DNA of 64,000 nucleotides from Leucoraja ocellata (lineage: Eukaryota), in the NCBI GenBank assembly GCA_036785375.1, contig JAWMAR010000143.1, positions 3,596,001 through 3,660,000 on the forward strand, in the 5' to 3' direction. The notes under the pieces are model-generated. The model saw only the letters and a list, made by a program, of their open reading frames with translations. It was not told where the DNA came from and made no database searches. Positions within the stretch are counted from its first letter, which is position 1. Every line of letters begins with the position of its first letter. The position numbers were made by a program, and so were the translations under genes. Of the stretch, positions 2,435 through 57,405 are shown in pieces.

Positions 2435-2700
2435 ATGAGAAACTGCAGATGCTTGAATCTTGAACAAAAAAACAAAGTGCTGGAAGAACTCAACGGGTCA
2501 GGCATCATCTATGGAGGGAATGGGCTGATGACGTTTTAGCTTGGGACTTCTTTAAATTGATAGTTGGAAGATTGCTGGAAAAGAGAGGTGGGTGTGGGAA
2601 GTGACCAATGGATACAGGTCAGGGGGGGGCAGTGAATTGGCAGATGGGTAGATAGTGACAAAGGAGATGGTGTCAGATAAAGAAAGAAGAGAGTGAAATG
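2435..2700 (-). mobile_element. Old Penelope-like element terminal (tail) fragment
   Basis: aactgcagatgc...aaagtgctggaagaactcaacgggtcaggcatcatctatggaggg matches the tail that follows the GIY-YIG remnant at 47934-48140. Confidence 0.7.
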
Positions 2701-3750: not shown

Positions 3751-4276
3751 TAGAAACATAGAAACATAGAAATTAGGTGCAGGAGTAGGCCATTCGGCCC
3801 TTCGAGCCTGCACCGCCATTCAATATGATCATGGCTGATCATCCAACTCAGTATCCCGTACCTGCCTTCTCTCCATACCCCCTGATCCCCTTAGCCACAA
3901 GGGCCACATCTAACTCCCTCTTAAATATAGCCAATGAACTGGCCTCAACTACCCTCTGTGGCAGAGAGTTCCAGAGATTCACCACTCTCTGCGTGAAAAA
4001 AGTTCTTCTCATCTCGGTTTTAAAGGATTTCCCCCTTATCCTTAAGCTGTGACCCCTTGTCCTGGACTTCCCTAACATCGGGAACAATCTTCCTGCATCT
4101 AGCCTGTCCAACCCCTTAAGAATTTTGTAAGTTTCTATAAGATCCCCTCTCAATCTCCTAAATTCTAGAGAGTATAAACCAAGTCTATCCAGTCTTTCTT
4201 CATAAGACAGTCCTGACATCCCAGGAATCAGTCTGGTGAACCGTCTCTGCACTCCCTCTATGGCAATAATGTCCTT
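3751..4276 (-). mobile_element. Young 5'-truncated CR1 LINE (ORF2 C-terminus, 3' UTR and octamer-repeat tail)
   Basis: Open frame KDIIAIEGVQRRFTRLIPGMSGLSYEERLDRLGLYSLEFRRLRGDLIETYKILKG...FFTQRVVNLWNSLP; ATAGAAAC repeats (+ strand) at 3751-3772 form the CR1 terminal microsatellite. Confidence 0.96.
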
Positions 4277-4299
4277 TAATATGATGTTAATAGAGACAT

Positions 4300-4490
4300 A
4301 ACAAGCGCTTAACAGTGACACCCCCACAGTCTTGCGGAAAGCGGAGATTTTAATAGATTTTTTTTTCACCAAATTTCAAAATCTGGATTACAAAACAGGG
4401 GGGGGGGGGGATTGTTCCCCACCTCTCAAAACACGTGGGGGGGGGGGGGGTACGCGTCCTTCTCGTCCCCCCTGGGATTTCCGCCCACGA
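4300..4490. mobile_element. Probable terminal fragment of a non-autonomous DNA transposon
   Basis: GC-rich block with poly-G runs ending cccccctgggatttccgcccacg, resembling ends of hAT-type MITEs; partner end not seen. Confidence 0.35.
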
Positions 4491-5894
4491 GCTAAAAATG
4501 CAGAAACATTTTAGTTTGAAATGATCTAGCGAGCAAATACATAAAATAGAAGAAATAGAGGCTGTTTCTGTGAGTAGCATCTCAGCAGCATCTGGTCTCA
4601 ACATCTTAGTGAGGTTTTTCTCAACCGTGTGCCAGGATGGAAAGGTGAAAATGGTGCTGTCAATGGTGAGCTGTGCTCTCATTATGTTTACTGCTATGTG
4701 AATATTACTTTTTACCTGACCCTGTTGACATCTGTTTGCTGTTGTTTTTCAAGTGAGCCAGGAAACAAACAAACAACGTGTCTGCTTGAAATAAGCCGCA
4801 GTTTATCTGCAGTCTGTTTGACCACGTTCCACTTAAGAGATTCAGTGCAAGCAACCTTTTAAGAAGCCCTGTCAGTCGTGCATAAATGTTTAAGAAAGAA
4901 CTGCAGATGCTGGAACTATGAACCATAGGTAGCTCTGAAAAGCAACCACAGATTTTATTTGAGGAGTCAAGAGGAGCATAAATATTTCTCTTTGCCTCAC
5001 CAACCGGTTTCTGCCAATTCTTCTGTGCCAATCTATCCCTATTGTCCACCAACTACTTAGCAGTCGACTTCCAACTCTGCTCCTTTCCCACCCCCTCCTC
5101 AATGAACAAGCTGTCAGATGGTGCTGGCAGCTTGCTGCAAAGATTCAAATTAGGCCCAATCATGAAAATTGCTCAAGCTCCGTTTGCTTCTTATATACTG
5201 TGTACTGAAGATAAAAGTTGGAGCCTGTAGTTTTAAAATTGCCTGCACAGGAATGTGAGTTAAAGACTGGCTAGCCCTTCACACCACCAATATAAAACTT
5301 TCTTCTCGTATTCCATTGCAGTGAGGCGGACAAACACCCTGGATACAAAAGTCTGCGGTATTGCTAGTGTCATTCAATGCTGTCAGCTACTAATGCTGAA
5401 AAGATTGCCAACAATAGTCAAGCTGGAAACTCCAAAATAAAAGAGCATTAAATACAACATTCTGGAAATGACTGGATGATGTTAATGATAGAAGTTCAAA
5501 AATATTTATTTCAATTTCTCTTCTATTATTAATTGATGAAAATAATTGAATTAAATAACCGTCAAAGTTTGATACTAAGCACTTGAATGATCACATCACA
5601 TGTGGGGGTTGTTTCATTATAAGGATTTTACATTGAACAATGGAATTACAAAATTTAATGGAGAAATTGCACACTGAAAATATGTTAATATGGAATAATA
5701 TTAGATAAAATCCACATCGAGAATGCAAAAAAAAAGTCTTCACAAAAAACTTGCAATCTGATCTAATTAACACAAAGAACATGATTTCTATGTCAAGAAA
5801 TTTTTAATGGGCATTAAACAGGTATGGGAGAAGGCGCACAAAATATTCAAATTAATTCTCACAATTTATCACAATATATTTCACGTACCATTTT

Positions 5895-10600: not shown

Positions 10601-11441
10601 TAGTGGTAGGGATTTTTGGATGGGCCTCACAGTCACAAAGAGAGTTAACTGGATGAAGAGAGACTATGGCTGGAAATGTGATAGAGCATTAAGAGTTCAA
10701 TGGACTTAAATTCCATGGAAGTCGATAGATCTGAATTTTGAAGGCATAATACAAAGCTACTTTAGCGTTATCGACCGGGGATAAATTCCTGCGTATACAT
10801 TTTCTTTGGAGCACTCCTGGATTTCCTGACATCAGAAAGATATATCTTTTAAAGAAAGCTTTTACATAAAGGAACTGTTGGGACCTCTTCTGGACTCCTG
10901 TTCTTTTTCCACTTTATTTACTTGAGAAAATCACAAAAGCTTCCTCACTCAGGCCAGCAGTTAAAACACTTATGGAAGTCTGTTGATCACTTCAGTTTTG
11001 AACTGCAGAACAATTGAAGGAACCTGCTGGCTTCAGATGGGCAGACAATACATATGCTGAGAAGGCTAATTGCAGTGTCATTATTAGAGATTTGATAATG
11101 GTGTCAGCATGTAAAGCCAAACAAAATGTTTGCTACTGTCAGCGGGAGCAGCCTTAAATGTATTGCTAAAGAGAAATGGTCAGATAAGCTCGTCCTTTAG
11201 GTGTAAGAGATATAATTTAATACAGGTAATTATGGGCTGCAGGACCTAATTCTTAAGGTAGCAGCTAAGATTCTGAATTGTTGATCCAAAGCCATTTTTA
11301 AATCCTGCCATGGTAGCGAGTAAATACTAATACGGATTCTTATATAAATCTCAAATTGCAAGACAAAACTCGTTTGAGTAACTGCAACCAAGAATCTTCT
11401 GGATTGAATCATTGTAAAAACCTCTCTGAATAACTAAATGT

Positions 11442-11570
11442 TTATGAAGGAACTGCAGATGCTGGAAAAATCGAAGGTCTGAAGAAGGGTCTCGACCCGA
11501 AACGTCACCTATTCCTTTGCTCCATAGATGCTGCCTCACCCGCTGAGTTTCTCCAGCATTTTTATCTACC
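11442..11570 (+). mobile_element. Short Penelope-tail-derived retroelement with a short inverted 5' arm
   Basis: gaaggaactgcagatgctgg joined to ctgaagaagggtctcgacccgaaacgtcacc...ctccagcattttt; degenerate flanking duplication ctctgaataactaaatgt / ctctgattaactgatgt. Confidence 0.85.
11475..11510 (+). ncRNA. Minimal type I hammerhead ribozyme motif
   Basis: Stem I AGGT (11475-78) / ACCT (11507-10); CTGAAGA box (11479-85); stem II GGGT-ctcg-ACCC; GAAA (11499-502); palindromic ACGT stem III; GUC triplet (11504-06). Activity is not shown by the sequence. Confidence 0.65.
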
Positions 11571-11619
11571 TCTGATTAACTGATGTACTTTAGGAAAGAA
11601 AATTTGCCATCGTCACTCA

Positions 11620-12217: not shown

Positions 12218-12392
12218 CCAAAAGGTACTGCAGATGTTGATTTACACAAAAAAACACAAAGTGCTGGAGTAACTCAGTGGGTCAGGTGGTATCACTGGAG
12301 GACATGGATAGATGATGTTTTCTTCCAGGTTCCTTGTTTATCCACATCCTCCAGAAATGCTGCCTGACCCACTGAGAGACTCCACCACTTTG
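12218..12392. mobile_element. Older fold-back Penelope-tail element
   Basis: caaagtgctggagtaactcagtgggtcagg...ctggagga and tcctccagaaatgctgcctgacccactgagagactccaccactttg are inverted arms. Confidence 0.8.
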
Positions 12393-21900: not shown

Positions 21901-24382
21901 TGTGATATTTGATGTTACAAACTTCTGCTTCATTAAAAATCGGAGACTTATTTGGTGTTTTAAAATTTAAAATAAGCATTGTTCGCCATGTTTTGGGAAA
22001 AGCAGCTTTATTTCCTTTATTGACACACCAATGTTTTCGGCGAATAAAGAGCATGAACTGCACGGTAGTGTGCATATTCAAATTTTAAACAGAACATTGT
22101 GTGTTGATATTCACAATCAAGCCTGATTTATAGTTTTGAATATGAAATGAAAACCATGCCCGCAAAACTGAAAAATTAACCTCAAGGAGAATCACATTTC
22201 CAGATAAATACACAGTTCTGCCATCAACATGGGCAGCGGCTTATGGGACTCGCATTTCAGAGAAACCCTTTGAAAAAGTACATTTTTGTTGTTTCTATTT
22301 ATATAATTTCGCAGTTGAATCTCATACAATGTCTGACATTTTAAAAGCACCGAGGCTTTTATTTGTTAGGTTGTAAAAGTGTTTGACAACTGTGCTAAAA
22401 TAGGCTAAATGTTTCCATTTTGTTTAGCAGTAAAACAATAATTCCCAGTGAAGAGAGCATTGCAGAATAATTCCATTGAATTTAATAAAAAGCAAAATCT
22501 TTTGACTGAAATATATTATAAATTACTTTGATTGATCATGGTATTGGATTAACTGTTCCTGTTTTGCCCGTTTTTTTGCAAATGCGCAGCCAGTCTATGC
22601 TTGTAAACGTAAGCCTAAATTTCTGCAAGGCCTATTTGAAATGGAAGTGAACGGGTCCAGTTTTGCACGTACTTGTTATTCATAAACAAGCTGTGCCGAA
22701 TAGTATGTTTATATTTCATTATCGAGACTGATGAATTGTTTCTTAACCCTTTTCATCCTGTCTTGGCCAGCAACTACGCCAAAGCTCTCATCCCTTTCAG
22801 TGGATCTGGGAACCTAGCCAACCGCTGTTTGTCTTCAAAGAACCCATTGATACTTACTAATGCGTCTTCCAAGACATGTTAGCAGATTTATAAATGGAGG
22901 TGTGTGCATTGACATCATGGTGCCTGCTCCTTGAGATTTTTGAAAATTAATTAAAAATTTTGGATGGGAGATCTCATTGCAAAGCCTAGTGCTGTTGCTG
23001 ATCTTGTAATGTAGCATGAACTAACCCTGTTGACCTGCAACACAACAGGAGCTGTCCCTTCAGCTTAGATTGCACTGAAGTTTACCCCTTGAAATGGATT
23101 ACAATTGAAAATTATCAATCCTTTAAGGATAGCAGGATCTACTGATCTAATAGAAAATAAAAAAAATACTATAGTGATTGAGTACTATTTTAAAATTTGT
23201 TGTGTATTGGGACTGGAACAATTTGTGATTTCCTTTTTGCTCAGCTCTGCCCCTCTATGGTGCCTCACCTATATGTTTTAACTTTGTGTCCAGTTAACAT
23301 GTTAGTAATCATTGTGTCTTGAATGAACTAATCTGTTTTTTAAACTCTGTTCATTCTGGGGTACATTACTCCCGAGGAAGTATATTATAAATGGCTTAGG
23401 TCTCATTTCATGTAAAAATTCTTGTACAAATCATAGTGGATGATTTTCATTTTTACACATTGCAACAAACACTACAGCTAAACAAATATTTAACTGTCTG
23501 TAAAACTGAGAAGTCCCGAGATTATAAATGATACTGTAAAATGCGGATCTTTCCTTTCTTCTTATCAATCTGGCATACATTAAACTCCAAATCTTTGAGG
23601 TAGAAGGTGTATTTTTATATGACTACATTTCCCCAATCTTGTTATTTACAATGTTTTCAATTGGCCATAGTTTGTGTTTGTTTATTTTACTTACTTTGAG
23701 GTCATTCAAGGAATAAGTGCAAATACCATTAGGTTGGCAGGATAATGTACTTTATAAAACACTATTGTTTGCTCAAAAAACTGATGAAATAGAGAAAAAG
23801 AAATGATAAATCAGAAAATAATTCCCTGCAATCCTTTTTGAATGCAAGGCCCGATCCTCATTATAATTGAGCAACAATCTTTCACAAAAGTCCTGTCCAT
23901 GCTGATTTTGAAGAAAAGTTAGAATGCTGTTCTTGCTCTTTCTTTTGCTAAAATCGGTAAAGGCAGAAATTTCTGCCCCAAGGGGAATAAACGTGGTGCT
24001 GTTTAGAATATTAGGGCTCAAAAGATTACTTGGGCTGCTTAACTATGGCTTTTTGTTATTTTTAAAATCAATTCCATCATGTGTGATGGAGAACATATTC
24101 ACACTTTGCAATGTTTGTTCCTGGTTTATAAATTAGCCCAAATGCATGTAATAAGTGAAGTGATTGCCCATTTTTGTTTCTGCATTTTTTAAAAAATCTA
24201 TTTTTTATTTATTTTTTATTTAATCTCAGTTCATGTTAAATTGTGCATTGATTCTCTGTCTACCGACCATTTGCCCCATTTCTCCAGAAGGACAACGGAT
24301 CTTGCACTGACATCAATAAAACTGGCAAAGTTCAGTTTTACAGGCCACTATGTTTTTCCTAAACACAAAGACGGATTCTTCT

Positions 24383-24618
24383 AAGGTAGACACAAAATGC
24401 TGGAGTAACTCAGCGGGACAGACAGCATCTCTGGAGGGAAGGAATGGGTGATGTTTTGGGTCGAGACCCTTCTTCAGACTGCAGAAATCTGAAAAGGGTC
24501 TCGTCCCGAAAAATCACCCATTCCTTCTCTCCAGAGATGCTGCCTGTCCTGCTGAGTTACCCCAGCATTTTTGTGTCTACCTTCAATTTAAACCAGCATC
24601 TGCAGTTCTTTCCTAAAC
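24383..24618. mobile_element. Fold-back Penelope-tail short retroelement with TSD
   Basis: About 95-bp inverted arms (24383-24480 and 24488-24583); TSD acggattcttct (24371-82) / atggattcttct (24619-30); both arms hold mutated hammerhead cores. Confidence 0.92.
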
Positions 24619-24689
24619 ATGGATTCTTCTCATAAGTACTTTCTAATGTCTTGCCCAGGCGAAACTAGAATGAGTGTTGGCATATCATC

Positions 24690-25870: not shown

Positions 25871-26015
25871 TAAAACATATTACTATATTGCCCCTTGCAA
25901 CATAATGTTCTCAATTCAATTATCATGGCTAAGAAGAATCATGACAACACTTTTGTTTTCTTGAGCAAAGGGCCAGTTTCTGGGGGAAACATCTGAAAAA
26001 ATATTCCATTAAAAT

Positions 26016-26100
26016 GGAAAACGGCCCGAAACGTCGCCTATTTCCTTCACTCCATAGATGCTGCTGCACGCGCTGAGTTTCTCCAGCATTTTTGTGTACC
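26016..26100 (+). mobile_element. Truncated Penelope-tail short retroelement with TSD
   Basis: cggcccgaaacgtcgcctatttcc...ctccagcatttttgtgtacc; perfect 12-bp TSD ttccattaaaat (26004-15 / 26101-12). Confidence 0.9.
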
Positions 26101-28703
26101 TTCCATTAAAATATATGTTTTTCTGACCTGTGTTTTGCACAGTAGATTCTAGCATGCCTACCCTGTTTATAAAATATTTTTGGGAAACATCACATAACGT
26201 AATTGCTTTGTTGCCGTTGCTGGTTTGTTTCTCAAAAGTATGTATTTTTTGCAAACTGACAGATACACAAGGAGAATGGGGTGGACAGTTCTTGGTTTTG
26301 ATTAATACTATTTTAAACCAATCCCGTTTCAAACTAGTATAACACTTATTCAGCAGAAACCCAATCCATTAAAGTATGACTTTTATTCTTCCCAAAAATG
26401 CTTCCTCATTACACTGTGGTGCTATAAATATAATATTTTAGTACAGATAATCATACTCTATTCTGAAACTATGGTGAATATTGTCAGTTCCCAGTCTGGG
26501 AGATAGAAAAAAACTGAAAGTTAACAATATTGCAGAGTATGCTAATGGAAACCATTTTAAATAGCAGTGAAGAAACAAAGCCATTGTGCTGTATTGACAT
26601 ATTGATGTAAAAAAGATTAACCTTGAAAGTTGATATACCCGACTATAATAACAACTTAAGCCTTTGTTTTTCTTATATATAATGAGCTGGATTGTCGTGC
26701 ATTTGGCCCTGCCCAAACTTGCCGCCTCTGGGTTCCTATTCGTCAACACTAACGCGATCCACATATGAAGGGTTGACTGAACTGAGCTTCCATCCCTGGA
26801 TTCAACGAAATGGGACGGGCTGTGAGTGCCTCGACTATTATCGGCACCAGTGGCCTTTTGACGCTTGCAGCTGTCAAAGGCCTTTAAACTATATATAAAT
26901 GCCACTAATGATCAGAAAGTTTAAACAGAATTGAAAGAGACTGAAATAGTTGTCAAAAATATAACATTAAATCTAATTAAATTGTGAGAGATTTTAATTG
27001 ACGACATTGAGATAAAGAGTGTTAAATAAATCACATGCTGATTCAAGGTCAGTGACTACATTCAAACAAATGAAGCAATGCGGTTTGTGCCTGCCTTGGC
27101 TCTGTATTAGTGATTTACCGCAAAATTCATCCTATGCATGCTCCATCCAATTTAATAATCACCGTAGAAGATAAAAACTTAAGTTATAAGCACTTAGAAA
27201 AATGGATTGCTTGCCTTCAAAAAAAAAAGTTTGAAGATTTGTTCGGTTAATTAGAAAATATTCTGAAATGAATATAGTTAGGAGTACCGATAGCCAACAC
27301 AGTCCATAGTGTGTTGTTAACTGATATAAGCTGTTGTGATTAAAGAATTTGAGATCTTGCAATGACCTATATTATGGTGGATTATCATTTTACATTGGCT
27401 AACGGAGATGAATAGTAGAGTCATTATTTTGATTGGCTTCTAAACAATTCAAAATATCTAAGCAGCAAGAGGCCATTTAAATCATTTTGTGGCCCACTTA
27501 TAATTGTTCATTTGGAATTTGACGGAGTGCATTTTTAAAGGAATTTAAGGCTGCATTATCTTCCTTTGTCTGCTTCCATAGTTCTGTTTTAGGACCATCA
27601 AGAAGTGTCATTTAAAGCCTCATGTGAATGGCATTCTGTCGTTGTTTAATAAATCAAGCTCTTATGTGGAATTTTCTGCTGGAATTAAGGCAATTTTGTT
27701 TCAATTTCAAACCTTTGTTGCTGAAATGTTCGAACCTTTTTCATTTCCATCCTCCGATGAAAACTTTCTGCTATTTGAAAAGTATCATCGATGGTTGAGA
27801 AACTTTATGAGACAGTTTTATGTTGTCAATGACTACGGGAGTAACCATTTTGCATGTGAAGATTAGGTGATGGTTGTTAAAATGGATGTTGTAATTTCAT
27901 GAGTTTACGAAAGAGATAAATACTTTCTTTAAACAAAGAATCTCAATGCTTATCATTAAAAGTTCCTCCAACATAATGTTTTTCCCTGTATCCGTGCACG
28001 TGATAATAATAAACCAATACGAATATTCATTTAAAATCTTGCCTGGTCATGGATTACTCCGGCTGGATCTGGTTTCAGACTTCACTTGTGCCAAAGACAG
28101 GTAACGGAGCAGCTCTTAATGTAGTCTGAGTTAACTGAAAACCAATGAGAACTGGTGGTTTATTACTATCTGAGCCTGAAACTGTCCATGGTTACTCAGT
28201 TAGTTTGTGAATGCAGTCCTACAGGCATTCTCAATTTATTTTGAAGGGTCTGGGTGTTTTGAACTATTTGAACAATCTCTTCCCCCCCCAACGCCCTCCC
28301 CATTTTTTACTAGTAAACTAGAAATGTTATATCTTGGTGTGAAAAGGAAACATTAAGCCATGTATGAGGTGCAACATGGGCATAATTATGTAATTGCAAC
28401 ATGCTGCCAGCTATTTAAACAATGACTACAGTGAATTTACCGTTTGAATGTAGTTTTAACTGTGGTTAAAACAGTTCAAATACCCCATTGGAATTAATAT
28501 AAAATATTGTAATTTTTTTTCTATTTGATCCCTTTTCTCAAAATAAACCTTTACCGTTGTTAATAATTTGAGCTAAGGTTCCCATGTCAGGTTAACATTA
28601 ATTTTGTAGATAGCTATAAGATATAAGGCTAAACACTTCTCGGATAATCCTCGATCTGTGTTAAATCATCCAGCTCAGCTCCGGTGGCATTAGGGACAAA
28701 ATA

Positions 28704-30358
28704 CAGTGCCCTCCGTAATGTTTGGGACAAAGACCCATCATTTATTTATTTGACTCTGTACACCACAATTTGAGATTTGTAATATAAAAAATCACATGTG
28801 GTTAAAGTGCACATTGTCAGATTTTAATAAAGGCCATTCTATTTTCATTTTGGTTTCACCATGTAGAAATGACAGCAGTGTTTATACATAGTCCCCCCCC
28901 CCCCCATTTCAGGGCACCATAATGTTTAGGACACAGCAATGTCATGTGAATGAAAGTAATCATGTTTAGTATTTTGTTGCATATCCTTTGCATGCAATGG
29001 CTACTTGAAGTCTGCAATTCATGGACATCACCAATTGCTGGGTGTCTTCTCTGGTGATGCTCTTCCAGTCCTGTATTGCAGACATCTTTTACTTATGCTT
29101 CTTTTGGGGGTTAGTCCCCTTCAGTTTTCTCTTCAGCATACAAAAGACATGCTCAATTGGGTTCAGATCGGGTGATTGACTTGGCCACTCAAGAATTGAC
29201 CATTATTAGCTTTGAAAAACTCCTTTGTTGCTTTACCAGTATGTTTGGGATCATTGTCTTGCTGTAGAATGAACTGCCGGCCAATGAGTTTTGAGGCATT
29301 TGTTTGAACTTGAGCAGGTAGGATGTGTCTATACACTTCGGAATTCATTATGCTACTGCCATCAGCAGTTGTATCAACAATGTAGATAAGTGAGCCAGTA
29401 CTTTCAGCAACCATACATGCCCAGGCCATAACACAGCCAGCACCTTGTTTCACAGATGAGGTGGTATGCTTTAGATCTTGGGCAGTTCCTTCTCTCCTCC
29501 ATACTTTGCTCTTGCCATCACTCTGATACAAGTTAATCTTTGTCTCATCTGTCCACAAGACCTTTTTTCCAGAACTGTGGTTGCTCTTTTAAGTACTTCT
29601 TGGCAAACTGTAACCTGGCCATTCTATTTTTGCAGCTAACCAGTGGTTTGCATCTTGCAGTGTAGCCTCTGTATTTCTGTTCATGAAGTCTTCTGAGGAC
29701 AGTGGTCATTGACACATCTGACTCCTGAAGAGTGTTTCTGATCTATCGGACAGGTGTTTGGGGATTTTTCTTTATTATAGAGATAATTCTTCTGTCATCA
29801 GTTGTGGAGGTCTTCCTTAGCCTGCCAGCCCCTTTGCGATTAGTAAGCTGATCAGTGCTCTCTTTCTTCTTAATGAAGTTTCAAACAGTTGATTTTGGTA
29901 AGCCTAAGGTTTGGCTGATGTATCTAACAGTTTTATTCTTGTTTCTCACTCATAATGGCTTATTGGACTTTCATTGGCACAAATTTGGTCCTCATGTTGA
30001 GAAAAAGCAATAAAAGTTTCTAAAGGTGATGAAAAGACAGGAGAAAGACTAGGTACTGAGAGCTCTCTTATACCTGCATTAAAGAGGCAATTAAATACAC
30101 CTGAGCAATTACAAATGCCTGTGAAGTTGTGTGTCCCAAACATTATGGTGCCCTGAAATGGGGGGGGGGGCTATGTATAAACACAGCTGTAATTTCTACA
30201 TGGTGAAACCAAAATGTATAAAAATGGCCTTTATTAAAATCTGACAATGTGCACTTTAACCACATATGATTGTTTTCTATTACAAATATCAAATTGTGGA
30301 GTACAGAGACAAATAAATAAATGATGGGTCTTTGTCCTAAACATTATGGAGGGCACTG
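28704..30358 (-). mobile_element. Full-length Tc1-family (IR/DR type) DNA transposon, inactivated
   Basis: TA TSDs (28702-03 and 30359-60); CAGTG...CACTG termini; TIRs of about 235 bp, each with outer and inner direct repeats (ccataatgtttgggaca-like); 1655 bp long. Confidence 0.98.
28966..29995 (-). pseudogene. Tc1 DDE (DD34E-type) transposase pseudogene
   Basis: ATG at 29995; HTH-like TVRYISQTLGLPKSTV and GRLRKT; catalytic WTDETK, QQDNDPKH and SPDLNPIEH; C-terminus KGYATKY*; several in-frame stops and frameshifts. Confidence 0.95.
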
Positions 30359-30639
30359 TAACATGCACCAACATAACTGAAGTAGTTCATTAAAATATAA
30401 ATAAGCCCTTACAGCTCTTTGTATTCAAACATCGTCAGAACTGGATGCTTTTATGCAGGCCCTCTTTCTGGATAGCTTGCAATATACTCCATTCTATCAT
30501 TCACTAGACTTCGTTCTGGCTTAAACAACCAAAGTTACACACGGTTCCCGAATGAAAACAATAAACACGGGAGGTAAAAAGCAAGAAAAATTAAAGCGAG
30601 AAATGCCGAGGGAAGGTACTATTAAAGAACCTCGTTGAA

Positions 30640-32519: not shown

Positions 32520-33010
32520 ATTTGAGTGGGCATTTAGGGGTATGCCACAATATTATTAGTTTGGACACAAAATGCTGGAGTAATTCTGTGAGACAGGCAG
32601 CATCTCTGGAGAGAATGAATGGGTGACCTTTCGGGTCTCGACCCGAAAGGTCACCCATTCCTTCTCTCCAGAGATGCTGCCTGTTCCGCTGAGTTACTCC
32701 AGCATTTTGTGTCCATCTTTGATTTAAACCAGCATCTGTAGTTCTTTCCTACACATTATTAGATTGGAATTACTTATGTGCCAGACTAGATAAAAACAGT
32801 AGGTTTTCTTTTGTCAGGGTATAGAAGTGACCTTGAGGAGTTGTTCATAACAATCCAGTAGTCCACATTACTGTTGCTAACTTATTATTCTAGATTTATT
32901 AAATTAATTGAATTTATTTCATCAGCTGCTATGGTGACATTTGAACTCGTTCTCTGAATCATTAGTTCAAGTCCTTGGATTATTAGTAAAGTAACTTCTT
33001 ACGCTATCAT
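32520..33010 (-). mobile_element. Old tRNA-derived SINE remnant interrupted by a fold-back element
   Basis: Minus strand: ttactaataatccaagg...gagttcaaatgtcaccatagcagctg...aattcaattaatttaataaatctagaat...ctactggattgttatgaac, matching a recalled shark/ray SINE. Confidence 0.6.
32562..32754. mobile_element. Fold-back Penelope-tail short retroelement with TSD
   Basis: Near-perfect palindrome centred on gggtc-tc-gaccc (about 32633-32644); TSD attattagtttgga (32552-65) / attattagattgga (32755-68). Confidence 0.92.
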
Positions 33011-38309: not shown

Positions 38310-38384
38310 TCAATGGGATCTAAACCACAGCTAACAATGAATGACCTGTGGAGGAAGGAACTGCAGATGTTGCTTTTAATGGAT

Positions 38385-46510: not shown

Positions 46511-47062
46511 TCCACCCGATCTATTCCTCTCATGATTTTATACACCTCTATAAGATCACCCTTCATCCTTCTGCGCTTCAAGGAATAGAGTCCCAGGCTA
46601 CTCAACCTCTCCCTTTAGCTCAGACCTCTAGTCCTTGTAAATCTTTTCCGTACGCTCTCTAATTTGACAACATCTTTCCGATAACACGGTATCCAGAACT
46701 GAACACAATACTCTAAATACCCCAGAGCTCTACCATTCGCTGTGTTGGTCTTGCCCATGTTAGACTTACCAAAATGCAACACCTCCGTATGCAATTTCTC
46801 CGTATTAAATTCCATCAACCATTCCACAGTCCACCTGGCCAATCGATCCAGATCCTGCTGCAATTTTTCACAACTATGTTCACTATCTGCAAAACCACCT
46901 ACTTTTGTATCATCAGCAAATTTGCTATTCTTGCCATCTATGTTCTCATCCAAATAATTGATACAGATGACAAACAGTGACGGACCCAGCACCGAACCGT
47001 GAAGCACATCACTAGTCACAGACCTCCAGTCCGAGAAGCAACCTTCCACCATCACCCTCAGC
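46511..47062 (-). mobile_element. CR1 ORF2 reverse-transcriptase fragment with internal deletions
   Basis: RVMVEGCFSDWRSVTSDVLHGSVLGPSLFVICINYLDE...SKFADDTKVGG...LQQDLDRL..W...WLMEFN...LEYCVQFW. Confidence 0.95.
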
Positions 47063-47933
47063 TTCATTCCAAGAAACCAACTGTCCAGATTTCTATGTTC
47101 CTGTAAGGCTAATCCTGAGGAGTTAGCATGCTCCTCCATAGTGAGTAGATGGTTGTTGGTCTCAAAACCATTTTCTGCTTGATCCCCTTTAATTCCCTGT
47201 AGTTCACAATGGTTATCTGACCAAAGAAGTAGTTTAATAACAGAATGATACAACATAAACTTGCTCAATCCCTTGAAGTCTACACAGACCATCAAACATC
47301 TATTTCCCTTCATCCCATGTTCCCACGGTCCCATAAACTCCATGCCATACCCCCCTGATTCTACTCATGCACAAGAAGGAATTAACAGTGGCTAATTGCT
47401 TATCAACCTACATTTTTGATGCTGTGATTTTGCCAAATGCCTCATAGCATGTCATGTTTAGGATGCATCACAGTACTAAAAGAGGTGAATTAGCCCGAGG
47501 TGATTATGAAAGAATGAATCTTTAATCTAAAATACCTGCTCAACCAAGAATTATTGATTTGGATGATCAGCCAGAATCGGATGACATGGTGGAAGAATCC
47601 CCAACAGCTTAGAAAGATGAAGGTTTATTAGGAAACTGGGGAAGCAACTAGCTGCTGGTTTTGAGACCATACATCTTTCTCCAGAGATTATGCACCTGGA
47701 ATTGTACTTTATCTAATATACCCATGAATGACACTGAACAATGTTAATATATATAACAAGGGAATGCAACCCACTAATTTCCTGCTTTTTATATTCTGCC
47801 CTGAGGACACGCAGAAAGGCGAGCCAACCAGCTATCACTAGACAAATATTATGTCCATTGTTAATCTCTATGTCTTTCTTATGCTTCATATAAGTACCTG
47901 ACTAATTACATACTAGAACGATACTAGAATAAT

Positions 47934-48880
47934 GTAGACACAAAATGCTGGAGTAACTCAGTGGGACAGGCAACACCTCTGGAGAGAAGGAATGGGTGAC
48001 ATTTTGGGTCGAGACCCTTCTTCAGACTGATGTCGGGAGTGAGTGGTACAGAGATAAAATGTGTTCAGAGACAGTAATATTGGTGGGAAAACAGTGAAGG
48101 GGAAGGGGGAGGGGATGGAGACAGAGGGAAAACAAGGGCTACTTGAAGTTATTCAAGTGAATGTTCATACCGCTGGGCTGTAAGTTACCCAAGCGAAATA
48201 TGAGGTGCTATGCCTCACTCTGACAATGGAGGAGGCCCAGAACAAAAAGGTCAGATTGGGAATGGGAGGGGGAGTTAAAGTGCTGAGCAACTGGGAGATT
48301 AGGTAGGTTTAGGCAGACTGAGCGGAGGTGTTCAGCGAACCGATTGCCGAGCCTGCGCTTGGTCTCGCCGATATACAGGAGTCAACACCTGGAACAGGCG
48401 GATACAGTAGATGAGGTTGGAGGAGGTGTAAGTGAACCTCTGCCTCTCCTAAAATGATTTGGGGTCCTTGGATGGAGTCAAGGGGAGTGGTTAAGGGACA
48501 GGTGTTGTATCTCGTGCGGTTGTTGGGCAAAGTACCTGGGGAAGAGGTGGTTTGGGTGGGAAAGGACAAGTTGATCAGGGAGTTGCGGAGGGAATAGTCT
48601 CTGCAGAAAGCAGAAAGGGGAGGATATGGGAAGATGTGGCTGGTGTTGGGATCCTGGTGGAGGTGGCGAAAATGTTGGGGGATTATGTGCTGTATGCGAA
48701 GGCTGATGCAAAGATACAAGGACTCTGTCCTTGTTACGAATGGGGGGAGGGAGAGCAAGAGCGGAGATGCGGGATATCGAGGAGAACAATGTTCCAGCTT
48801 AATCATGAAAAATATAACGGGATAGAAACCAGTAGACATAATGTGTCGGAAGGAACTGCAGATGCTGGTTTAAACCGAAG
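47934..48880 (-). mobile_element. Penelope-like retroelement, 5'-truncated
   Basis: GIY-YIG coding remnant followed (minus strand) by a terminal repeat containing a mutated hammerhead motif (47994-48028); an additional tail piece lies at 48841-48880. Confidence 0.92.
48139..48787 (-). pseudogene. Penelope RT-linker/GIY-YIG endonuclease remnant
   Basis: Joined frames give RIQHII.QHFRHLHQDP.TSHIFP.PPLSAF.RD.SLRNSL...CPLT...SSNLIYCIR..CSRC*LLYIGETKRRLGNRFAEHLRSV...PVAQHFNS; frameshifted. Confidence 0.92.
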
Positions 48881-49236
48881 ATTTTGCAGTGACATATACG
48901 TACATTATATACCTAGCGACTAATTTTGTTTCACTTTATTATTACTGTTTGTAGTAGATAATGATGATTGTTTCCAGTTTTTTAGGCTCTATTAAACGCG
49001 AGGAAACAAAACAAAAATGCTGTAAACACACAGAATTATCTTTGGAAACAATTCAGCAGTTTCAGTTTCATGTGTGAGGCACCAAGTTCCCAGAACAGAA
49101 ATATTCAGTGGAAACATCGAGCTTCTTGGGCTATGATTATATTCCAATTACAAAGAGACTTCTGTTAATATCAATCATAATAGTGAATTGTAGTGGAACA
49201 ATCTTAGATTGATATGAGCTTATCCTCTTTGATAGT

Positions 49237-49365
49237 TGTTTAAGAAAGAACTGCATATGCTGGAAAAGTCTGTCTGAAGAAGGGTCTCGGCCGGAGACGT
49301 CGCCTATTCCTTCGCTCCATAGATGCTGCCTCATCCGCTGAGTTTCTCCAGCAATTTTGTCTACC
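49237..49365 (+). mobile_element. Short Penelope-tail retroelement with a short inverted arm and TSD
   Basis: Same layout as 11442-11570; perfect 13-bp TSD cctctttgatagt (49224-36 / 49366-78); hammerhead GAAA mutated to GAGA. Confidence 0.92.
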
Positions 49366-49749
49366 CCTCTTTGATAGTGTTCATTTTCATATTTCCTTCT
49401 AAAAATGCATTTCTAATGACTTCTTTGGTAATATTAAAGCAACATTTACCTACCTAGTCTCAAGACATGAATATTGCTGTACAATTGTTACATTCTGACA
49501 GCAGTTATTTAACTGACAAACTGTGGCAACATCAGAATAATACTACTTTCCTCATTCTTCTCCAGTATTATCTTGGGAATACTGCAATACGTTTAAGTTT
49601 TTCTTTCATGATTGGAAGGATCATTCATTGGAAGATTTATTCAACAATTATGCATTTTAGCCAGCACTTTTCTACAAAGGACAGCTTGAATTAAAAATAT
49701 ATATATTCTTTGTGTTGATGATGCATGTTAAAAATAGTGATTTTTAGTT

Positions 49750-51731: not shown

Positions 51732-52175
51732 GAGAATTGAGAACGTTTTATTGCCATATGTACCCAAACGGAGCAATTAAATGTTTGCAACCAAGGCAGT
51801 TCAGAGATTAGTTGGAGTTTGTAGTGTTCAATAGCCTGATGGTTGTTTGGAAGATGCTATTCTTGAACCTGGATGTTACAGTTTTCAGTATCCTATACCT
51901 TCTTCCTGATAGCAGGACAAAAATGAGAACATGGCCAGGGCGGTGTGGGTCCTTGGATGATGCTGGCTGTCTTTTTGAGACAGCGCCTCTGATAGATCCC
52001 TTCGATGATGGGGGATCAGTACCCATGATGGACCAGGCGGTTTTCACCACTTTTTGTAGTCCATGTTCCTGGGCGTTTGAGTTGCCGAACCAGACCATGA
52101 TGCAACCAGTCAATATGCTCTCTACCGCACACCTATAGATGTTTGAGAGAGTATTCTTCGACTTACTGAATCTCC
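51732..52175 (-). mobile_element. Rex/Babar-like LINE 3' fragment
   Basis: LSNIYRCAVESILTGCIMVWFGN...LQKVVKTA..I.G...DPHRPGH.....LLSGRRYR.LKT.TSRFKNS.F..TIRLLN is the typical Rex1/Babar ORF C-terminus. Confidence 0.9.
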
Positions 52176-52505
52176 TAAATAATGAATGAATCTGCATTTT
52201 GTTTGACAATGACCTGGTGGTCCCTCTTGCCGTATTAGTCTATTTCTTGCCATAGTAATCTACCTTCAGTCTTTGACATATACAGGTGAAGAATACTGTA
52301 GATTCCCAGTAACTTACGTGGCTTCTTTGTGCTTGCTTCAAATTGGCATTCCTGACTGAAATGTCAACACACTTCTAATGTTGTCAGGCTGCCCAAACAA
52401 TGAAGATTGGCCAGGTTAACCTCAATCCAACTTTTTCTGACAGTAATTCTTTTGGCAATTTTCTAAATCAACCATTATGGGAATGGAATTAATTTTAATG
52501 AAATA

Positions 52506-54820: not shown

Positions 54821-57280
54821 GAGCAACAAAAGATGTAAAGCCGATGCTGAACAACATAAAGAGAATTCACGTGGCGTTGTGTTGATTGCAAAGAATCCAG
54901 TGGCCAGTTCTTAAAAGATAATGAGCAAAATTCTAAACAATTGTTAATAGTTTCAGTAAATAGGTGCACAAATTAAGTAAGAAAATGTTCTATGAGAATA
55001 GTTGAATAGTTTTCTAAGTTGGTTGGATAATATTGTCCACAGAATTCCCTGATTCATGTTGCATTGTCACTTACATCTGACAATAAAATGAAATAATATC
55101 TGACGAACATTTTTTTTAAATCTGCAGTTTAGGAAATTATGCAAATTAGTGAAAAATCAATTATCTTTAAAATAAAATTGGGGAAACTTCTACATGGTAT
55201 AATGTTAGAAGCTAAACATGTTCCATCAGTATTCGTATGGGTCAATTAAAAAAAAGTTTGACATGATTCATAGCAAGAAGATCAGAATCATCGTTGCAAA
55301 CAAAAGAGTAAACTGTGGATATTGGAGCCCATTTAATCTATCAAGATGACCCCGCTAGGTTACAGAATGCACTTTCATGTTGTGAGGTCGAGGAATCAGC
55401 AAAGAACATGAAAATTACGCCTTTAATTCAAAAACGCTGCCAAAGAATATCTTGAACAAATTATTTGCACAGATTAGTTAAGTGGGAGGAATGGCAACCA
55501 AACCACCAAAAATAAGCTTCAGATAAAAGAGCAAAACCAGAATTTATGTTTTTATTACCCAAAGTTGGACTGTTTCCTAGTGCAGCCAATGTATGAATGG
55601 TTGACTCTGTGGTTGTGGTTTCCTGCAGATTTATAGGATGATTCCTGTCCAATTATATAAATAATACATATCTATGCTGACCATAGTTTCATGTCTTTAA
55701 TGGCAGCAAACGCTATAAGAAGTTACACAATAAACTACGAGTGAATTGGAAGTGTATTCTACATACAAATATTTTAAAGTTGTTTAATAAGCTAATGTTA
55801 TGCTGGGGAAAGGTTAGTAAAAAGCTGAGCCTGAATCAGCAGAATGATGGTCAGCTTGCCTTTAAAAATAATAATTCCCCAAACTTATTCACTTGTTGGT
55901 TGATCTCTATTAGTTACTGCTTTCCGTGGACCAATGCTCCACAGTTCTAAGAACGTAAGGACATTTCTCTGATTTGTACATCTTAGATTGGCATAATTTA
56001 ACTGATGAGCTCTTTACGCACTCCATTTCACGTATTCAATATACTTATTAGACATTGTTTATATTCTGACTCTGGATGGCAACAGTGGTGTTTTAATTGA
56101 GATTATGCAACTCACTGCCGTATTGGTGTCAGTTGAGTGCAACTTTTATAAGGCAGGACAACCTATAACATATGCGAAGGTTTTAAAAACCATTCTCAAT
56201 GCATGTCAAGCTTAATCAGTATATGATAGGCAGACTTCTGCCCCCCCACAGTTATTTTCAAATCTATCCCTCAATATGGAGCTCAAACCAGTTTCCTGGT
56301 AAGTTGATTCGTCCAAGATGACTGTTCCCATTGGAGGCTCTTGGTTGGCTAGGGTTCAAAAGTTGTAATATGTACAGAAATATTTTGGACAAACAATTTA
56401 AAAAAAAGTAGGATGGTATATATTTTGATGGCTTGAGTGCAGAAGGCCTGGACAGAACTTGGAAAGCTGCTTTTTGGATTACTTGAGAAACTGTAAAATA
56501 TTATCCAACAGTGGAAGCAAATTCAAATATCAATAAGGAAGCAATTGCCAGCCACATTGAATTGTAAGTGTCTGTTAGTTTAAGTAAATTGAGCAAGGTT
56601 TTTCCATGCTTTGGTTGTGCATGAACGTCAGCTATCGCTCCTGTTGTAGATGAAGAACTGAACTAAAGTTAACAAAATACCACTTAGTTTCTTTACAAGA
56701 GCACATTTGGCCTTAAAAATCAAGTCTCCGGGATAATAAGGCCTAAATAATACATAATGGAATAATCTTTGTGGAATCTAAATTGAGAACTTCAAAAGCA
56801 CATAAATGCTTTTAATTATTGACATTGCGTATTTTTTATGCTGAATCCGTTAACAAGACTGAAGTACGTACTTTTATAAATAATTACAAATAAGTTAAAC
56901 AGAGTGGCGCTTATGATGCTGCCTTTCCCATTCAAATTACATACTCAACGATATCTTATTGAAATAGATATTTCAATAGATGCTTGCTCATCCTCCCATC
57001 AGGTTGTGCAATTTCAAGTCTATCCACTGATGCTTATTAAATGAATATTATTACAATATTGTAATCACCCCCACAAGATGAGACTTGAAGCACCTTTACA
57101 TTTCAACAAAAATGTTTTTAAGATGGCACAATATTATTTCCTTTCTCAGCTGAGTAAATAATAGCATTTCCATGTCTTTAAGCGCCCAGTATAGTCTTGT
57201 CTATTGGTACTCACTGTCCATTATAGCAGAGATACTTCTATTTCCAAATGATGGTCCTAAAAACAATACCAGGAGAAGCA

Positions 57281-57405
57281 ATGTGTGGGAAGGAACTGCA
57301 GATGCTGGTTTAAACTGAATATAGACACAAAAAGCTGGAGCAACAGGCAGCATTTCTGGAGAGAAGGAATGGGTAATGTTTTGGGTCGAGAACCTTCTTC
57401 AGACT
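57281..57405 (-). mobile_element. Penelope-tail short element (single arm)
   Basis: tgtgggaaggaactgcagatgctggtttaaac...gggtcgagaaccttcttcagact. Confidence 0.85.

Follow-up and report, generated by a model that had tools for sequence, protein, structure and literature searches.

At 24371-24630 of the window (the whole 64,000-nt stretch of Leucoraja ocellata DNA analysed here) lies a head-to-head insert bounded by a 12-bp target-site duplication. Its parts are listed below in window coordinates. Element positions are numbered with 0 at C3 of a hammerhead-like core, whose predicted GUC cut falls after +27; PLE denotes Penelope-like element.

24371-24382, unstranded: left target-site duplication, 12 bp with one transition (10 bp exact)
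24383-24481, minus strand: tail-less arm, element positions about +94 to –4, core mutated
24482-24487, unstranded: inter-arm junction, 6 nt
24488-24583, plus strand: second arm, element positions –1 to about +94, core mutated
24584-24620, plus strand: PLE tail of about 35 bp, on the second arm only
24619-24630, unstranded: right target-site duplication, pairing with 24371-24382

The palindrome formed by the two arms (24383-24583, 89% self-match) has a predicted fold of –167.9 kcal/mol (z –18.8), in agreement with the proposal of an earlier sequence-only reading that such inserts can form RNA hairpins; both mutated cores are locked within the hairpin. The 6-nt junction was absent in identical form from the other independent palindrome loci that we read. 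Immediately 5′ of the left duplication, an 11-bp match to the tail end (24355-24365) may be a chance match or a trace of aborted priming.

The window contains further members of the same family:

47931-48785, minus strand: Neptune-type PLE copy, 5′-truncated, with a broken GIY-YIG region, 3′ UTR and tail-less arm
47926-47935 and 48783-48792: duplication of the 47931-48785 copy, 10 bp, one mismatch
11435-11572, unstranded: subfamily B insert, inverted tail plus arm
11424-11435 and 11570-11581: duplication of the 11435-11572 insert, 12 bp, one mismatch
26016-26100, plus strand: single tail-less arm, start near +14
26004-26015 and 26101-26112: duplication of the 26016-26100 insert, 12 bp, exact
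32562-32757, unstranded: head-to-head insert, turn at stem II (+8), tail on one arm
32552-32565 and 32755-32768: duplication of the 32562-32757 insert, 14 bp, one mismatch
49237-49365, unstranded: inverted tail (+98 to +128) plus arm (–2 to +91)
49224-49236 and 49366-49378: duplication of the 49237-49365 insert, 13 bp, exact
57280-57405, minus strand: single arm plus tail, –3 to +130, no clear duplication
12222-12392, unstranded: older degenerate head-to-head insert
2442-2537, minus strand: old degenerate arm plus tail
48840-48881, minus strand: tail-only piece, outside the duplication of the long copy
4883-4915, minus strand: tail-only piece

Eight pieces had been related from the letters alone to the terminal repeat of the 47931-48785 copy, and self-BLAST of the window recovered all eight, with E values from 6e-35 (24382-24481) to about 1e-6 and with the 2435 piece linked to that repeat only via other copies. 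All four of the 12-14-bp duplications proposed at the same time (at 24371, 26004, 32552 and 49224) were found. Altogether, five short inserts and the long copy in the window bear duplications, of 10-14 bp, and none was found flanking the 2435, 12218 and 57281 pieces. Shuffled flank pairs (n = 400) gave equally strong duplications in 0.5% of cases at a score of at least 9 and in 0% at a score of at least 10. The description of several pieces as long palindromes holds for 24383-24583, 32562-32715 (91%) and 12257-12392 (72%), but not for 11435 and 49237, which each consist of an inverted tail and an arm.

A further tail-only piece lies at 38347-38376, and tail-only inserts with their own 13-16-bp duplications occur in a random genomic sample (L065, L069; sample described below). 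Outside the PLE family, a separate 60-bp AT-rich palindrome at 1200-1259 (93% self-match) is kin to a repeat near 46530-46570, and inverted ends of about 235 bp (92%) at 28702-28935 and 30130-30360 belong to a DNA transposon. The minus-strand ORF 29163-29588 inside this 28702-30360 transposon is presumably a Tc1-like, transposase-like fragment, and we take the minus-strand frames at 3848-4375, 46615-47364 and 51808-52239 to be pieces of LINE reverse-transcriptase ORFs (CR1-like and others).

The long copy is 83% identical to a near-full-length genomic copy (L231). It had been named a GIY-YIG element; in the window copy this region is frameshifted, which explains why a Pfam search of the window's own frames gave no match, but the domain is confirmed in the relatives L231 and L221. 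L231 encodes a reverse transcriptase (RT) with a DKG motif (Pfam RVT_1, E 0.001, below the curated cut-off) together with a GIY-YIG domain at the C terminus (Pfam E 0.0075, likewise below the curated cut-off), and a PDB sequence search with it gave no match. The order of an RT with DKG motif and then a C-terminal GIY-YIG domain with two internal cysteines is present in both L231 and L221. A natural 257-aa frame of L221 matches GIY-YIG/HTH_animal clusters of the ESM Atlas at 0.96, and its ORF carries a C-X4-C-X2-C linker, of the form CX2-5CxxC, before the endonuclease; a CX4CxxC-type linker is assigned to Neptune and Nematis (PMC8557442). Judged by these motifs, the parent is an endonuclease-bearing (EN+) PLE of Neptune type.

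Three of 294 tailed copies run on into a common sequence, and searching with that sequence gave the 5′ region of the unit. Arm, tail and post-tail sequence form a single reading frame into the ORF N-terminus, and the repeated piece is therefore a pLTR, the start as well as the end of the unit. An intron in the post-tail sequence was considered and dropped because this sequence reads as the ORF N-terminus. The derivation of the short pieces from Penelope tails was thus right as to their origin, but incomplete in that the repeated piece is also the 5′ start of the unit, in frame with the ORF. The family displays a pLTR, an inverted 5′ copy, a one-sided tail of 30-40 bp and a variable duplication. 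We also observed mini-units in which an arm, tail and about 150 nt of ORF start are followed by a second arm in direct repeat (L241:1369-1789, L250, L254, L255, L262, L263); one direct-repeat mini-unit carries its own 11-bp duplication, and several break near about +285, but the query ended close to that position.

Abundance was estimated from a random sample of the 3.44-Gb assembly, made up of 100 arbitrarily chosen 10-kb pieces of the 40 largest contigs (1 Mb). This random megabase holds 432 arms in about 370 insertions, with 36,546 bp (3.7%) of arm or tail sequence, a density above that of the window; by extrapolation, the genome would contain roughly a million inserts. Single-arm inserts account for 555 of 749 de-duplicated inserts, and simple head-to-head inserts number 124, compared with 8 tail-to-tail. 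Many genomic match pairs share flanks at about 95-99% identity (e.g. L072/L074 and L090/L091), a sign that segments were recently duplicated or that the assembly retains haplotypes.

The outer ends of the inserts are sharply placed. Arm 3′ ends are bimodal, at about +86-95 and about +126-129, flanking the tail, and inserts with two arms combine one arm that has the tail with one that lacks it. This tail-plus/tail-minus pairing was found in 46 of 54 classifiable inserts of the random megabase (27 expected, p = 7e-8; 21 unclassifiable) and in 27 of the 29 with a confirmed duplication. Over all de-duplicated loci the count is 88 of 102 (51 expected, p = 1e-14; 39 unclassifiable), leaving out palindromes picked by targeted search. 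Both arms belong to one subfamily in 47 of 48 two-arm inserts. The duplications range from 10 to 22 bp (median 14, n = 48, overlaps with the element included). The mean microhomology with the RNA continuation is 2.5 nt for the distal (n = 15) and 1.2 nt for the proximal site (n = 31), compared with 0.34 nt by chance, in a table that includes one mis-anchored row. The sequence-only reading had offered extremely truncated Penelope insertions as one alternative; the parentage stands, but random truncation is wrong as an account of the ends, as both are sharply placed.

The resemblance to a MITE, a non-autonomous DNA transposon, lies in the long inverted arms and the flanking duplication. The duplications show the 10-22-bp spread just given in place of the fixed length and fixed termini of a DNA transposon, the termini are asymmetric because of the one-sided tail, lengths and junctions vary among copies, about three quarters of the copies are single-armed, and the sequence is that of a PLE end. 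Neither a fixed duplication with symmetric fixed termini nor a homogeneous palindromic master was found, and we regard a DNA transposon as extremely improbable.

The relation between the two arms bears on how many cDNAs were made. Scoring an insert as non-nested when its tail-less arm extends more than 5 nt further 5′ than its tailed arm, we found 27 of 54 two-arm inserts to be non-nested, 16 symmetric and 11 nested, in a count that omits 12 inserts with spacers longer than 12 nt and includes some loci from targeted searches. Each arm of a non-nested insert holds bases that the other lacks, and two cDNAs were therefore primed; 11435 and 49237 are the extreme cases, pairing an inverted tail alone with a full arm. 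Fold-back self-priming, in which one cDNA (or an antisense template) folds and copies back on itself, has been proposed for head-to-head repeats of rotifer PLEs with palindromic junctions (PMC3846280). It is compatible with the other 27 of 54 inserts, symmetric or nested, and the 32562 insert does turn on the stem-II palindrome. In the non-nested half, however, 11435 and 49237 included, neither arm can have been copied from the other, which refutes fold-back as the sole mechanism, and the second arm ends at the same +94 site as single-arm copies; we consider this route improbable. Junctions were surveyed in the best 30 genomic matches to 24383-24620, of which 28 were read (L083 and L100, reverse-strand repeats of other matches, were left out). 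Among these best matches, the 28 palindromes include eight pairs with common flanks, giving 20 independent sites, and distinctive junctions are common only to flank-sharing pairs. The simplest join, through a CTG overlap of 3-4 nt, is found repeatedly, at several sites and in each of the two subfamilies, as microhomology predicts.

The inner ends converge on one position. In a set of 266 young arms, 128 reach +5 (in-arm ends derive from BLAST alignments, with later decay included, and two 5′ ends were placed manually), and 87 of these 128 arms at risk end within –5 to +5. The resulting rate of 0.083 per nt compares with 0.007-0.017 per nt for the rest of the arm and 0.003-0.008 for the UTR. 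Single-arm copies behave likewise (46 of 86 end within –5 to +5), and several adjoin their duplication at the 5′ stop, which therefore marks an insertion boundary rather than lost homology. Copies of the unit's own 5′ end, read by eye at 22 independent loci (L264 left out), reach the core in 13 cases, of which 9 stop at –7 to +2 and 4 continue into UTR. TCAGT is kept at the stop in at least five diverged UTR families, and by consensus we take it to be initiator-like. A TCACT motif has been noted in a PLE pLTR (PMC3846280), and the Penelope element of D. virilis has an internal promoter (PMC2377424). The stop at –3 to 0 may then represent the transcription start, and most stubs may be run-off copies. 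An extra G of the kind that a reverse-transcribed cap would add is no more than a weak signature: the base preceding perfect copies that start with AGT is G in 433, T in 392 and A in 362 cases, in addition to 3020 with the templated C, so that G makes up 36% (433/1187) of non-templated bases before –3, a modest excess over the roughly 28% expected. Before –2, a hand tally of the first 100 of 3077 copies gave 57 with G, about 20 of them with a templated explanation, and 5 of 30 GAGT loci inspected are long copies.

Two other readings of the 5′ stop and of the many stubs that share it were weighed against a transcription start used by the full element. The stop could be a 3′ splice site, a branch point or a strong RT pause ahead of helix I, any of which would leave twin priming unchanged. 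At least five diverged UTR families do converge there on a pyrimidine tract, CTGAC or CTAAC and then CAG with the break before T, the frame is open from the core onward with no early ATG, and in D. virilis the intron ends where a helix I of 2 bp has its 5′ end (PMC4209133). Short copies, however, share no upstream exon (anchored extension is mostly ≤14 nt and low-scoring), AG at –3 and –2 is kept in many copies, and the modest G excess fits a cap. The distance from branch point to AG would moreover be only 3-6 nt, too short for a usual vertebrate intron, and on balance we rate this group of explanations as unlikely. The second reading holds that a non-autonomous short element, a solo pLTR resembling a SINE, re-amplifies from an internal promoter and gives many of the stubs. 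Such an element would fit the D. virilis internal promoter (PMC2377424), the duplication-flanked single arms that begin at the putative transcription start, the share of short forms among young copies reaching the core (about two thirds) and the existence of mini-units with two direct repeats (L241). A lineage of short copies only is nevertheless lacking. In a weakly resolved tree of 114 arms with no starred branch, 77 short and 37 long arms are interspersed. The tree has 28 label changes, compared with 31.5 after shuffling (39 of 500 shuffles were as low), one long arm is identical to one short arm, and the youngest B subclade, although rich in short copies (24 of 28), has long members too. 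We hold self-amplification of a short element to be rather improbable, about on a par with fold-back. The fold of a single arm plus tail is no better than that of shuffles (z 0.57), and we therefore claim no stable recognition structure.

The inserts had also been called hammerhead-bearing, which is true of the family but hardly of the window: of 106 young arms reaching the core, 71 have the minimal type I form, with conserved core, stem II and the extra base 9/10.1, but among the 11 window arms read only that of 11435-11572 (core at 11477) is intact. An Rfam search of the window at E ≤ 1 yielded miRNA models below threshold on the hairpins but no hammerhead. Helix I has at most 2 bp in 63 of the 71 cores, short of the 4-5 bp of a minimal type I hammerhead, and the four cores with at least 4 bp are all short copies. 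At 11470-11512 the inverted tail-arm join gives the intact core a 4-bp helix I where the parent has 2 bp, and as judged from its sequence this core is the window's best candidate for a functional ribozyme. A retrozyme-like system, in which hammerhead cleavage frees a unit that is circularised and retrotransposed, had been put forward, and both the conservation of the core and a 2026 preprint tying vertebrate retrozymes to PLE pLTRs (bioRxiv 10.64898/2026.07.22.740005) speak in its favour. The ends speak against it. The 5′ ends are found some 30 nt upstream of the GUC cut, and mapping against that site revealed no enrichment: 6 ends fall at +26 to +30, compared with 19 in the surrounding 15-nt bin and an average of 10.6 per 5 nt, and genome-wide 831 matches start at +28, compared with 994 at the control position +32. 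Several of 30 inspected +28 matches are internal deletions or mirror junctions with microhomology. Nor were tandem arrays found, the 16 same-strand neighbours within 1 kb in 1 Mb including no multimer, and no RNA read ends were seen at the cut in four poorly suited libraries of a related organism. Together with the short helix I and the interspersion of short and long copies, these data make a retrozyme-like system very improbable.

The four raw RNA runs (oligo-dT or single-cell, fragmented or 3′-type, and poorly suited to mapping ends; 82% likeness to a family copy) contain matches in 0.3-0.4% of records, and 91-96% of the matching reads continue into unlike sequence. A pile-up of molecule starts or ends was not seen in these runs, whose libraries could easily miss one. 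Strand-switch joints are read in RNA, e.g. 164 reads at one joint (run X23), and mirror copies are therefore transcribed as parts of other RNAs. At L024:2258-2400, single-cell reads (X21, X22) fall about 7:1 on the element minus strand, possibly through oligo-dT priming on the purine-rich antisense UTR. The hairpins are liable to be mis-annotated as MITEs, as miRNA precursors (given the weak Rfam mir matches) or as retrozymes, and a few percent of the genome can supply double-stranded RNA to host transcripts.

The inserts are short copies of the initial 95-135 bases of a Neptune-type PLE, likely made anew at each site, and we think it probable that they arise by paired twin priming, with cDNAs that begin at two RT start sites and run off a fixed 5′ end of the RNA. 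The element endonuclease would nick both strands about 10-16 bp apart, and each nicked 3′ end would prime reverse transcription, one at about +94 (proximal) and the other at about +129 (distal), aided by 1-5 nt of microhomology. Both cDNAs would extend toward the RNA 5′ end and be joined via microhomology or a few added bases. With priming at the recognition signal's 5′ copy, most stubs may be run-offs, and the ends would be set without the hammerhead. Pairing and non-nested arms come from counts; tying them to two nicks and to the transcription start is our inference. On a broader reading, which we favour by a small margin only, every PLE insertion would be a coordinated two-primer event, with the proximal start on one strand and the distal start on the other, and a start signal about 100 nt from the cap would yield mostly strong-stop-like run-offs. 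If true, this would explain the inverted pLTR with its one-sided tail, and also the approximately one million stubs, headed by a hairpin or hammerhead, whose ends locate the RNA 5′ end to the base.

The inserts are real and abundant stubs of a Neptune-type PLE, an ordinary element class with a testable mechanistic footprint. In L1 twin priming, two target ends prime two cDNAs that are joined head-to-head by microhomology, with a random second primer site and only occasional inversion, whereas in the skate family both priming sites are fixed and paired. The layout of inverted copy, one-sided tail and variable duplication is already published for PLEs, and PMC8557442 calls the origin of the inverted pLTR and one-sided tail unresolved. 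Neither a start-site pairing rule for PLEs nor this family in skates or rays was found in the literature outside Repbase, Dfam, subscription journals and the supplements of PMC11167929 and the retrozyme preprint. The rotifer element Pen2a_Av shares with the skate family an inverted, 5′-truncated head-to-head copy, a 30-40-bp tail at one end, a variable duplication, and a pLTR that takes in the ORF start and carries an initiator-like motif (PMC3846280, PMC8557442). The skate inserts differ in being usually 85-240 bp long, without the body and, by extrapolation, present in about a million copies, and they favour two primed cDNAs over the self-priming of PMC3846280.

Metazoan PLEs carry minimal type I hammerheads (PMC4209133) that resemble the skate core in CUGANGA, the extra base before G10.1, a G-C closed stem II, GAAA and a palindromic 15.2-16.2; their helix I is typically 4-5 bp, compared with 2 bp in the skate family and in D. 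virilis. They are mostly single dispersed motifs from truncated PLEs, with opposite-strand pairs 100-700 bp apart (PMC4209133). Non-LTR retrozymes are likewise short and related to PLE pLTRs, with a type I hammerhead and long duplications (PMC7229834; bioRxiv 10.64898/2026.07.22.740005), but the skate family has no tandem arrays, has its ends off the cut and is arranged head-to-head, not head-to-tail.

The closest experimental counterpart is PAc, a Poseidon PLE of the green anole, which nicks and extends both strands, is predicted to be dimeric and does not need the hammerhead (PMC11167929). The two systems share a pair of internal RT starts, mapped in vitro for PAc, on either side of the tail and some 95-130 nt downstream of the hammerhead, and a lack of read ends at the hammerhead cut. 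The skate family differs in being Neptune-type by its linker motif and in its overlaps of 1-5 nt, whereas PAc primes without homology; no strand difference in start site was seen for PAc, and pairing per event lies outside that study (PMC11167929). The paired starts and non-nested arms of the skate inserts thus provide counts that separate the models and a direct prediction for the anole in vitro system.
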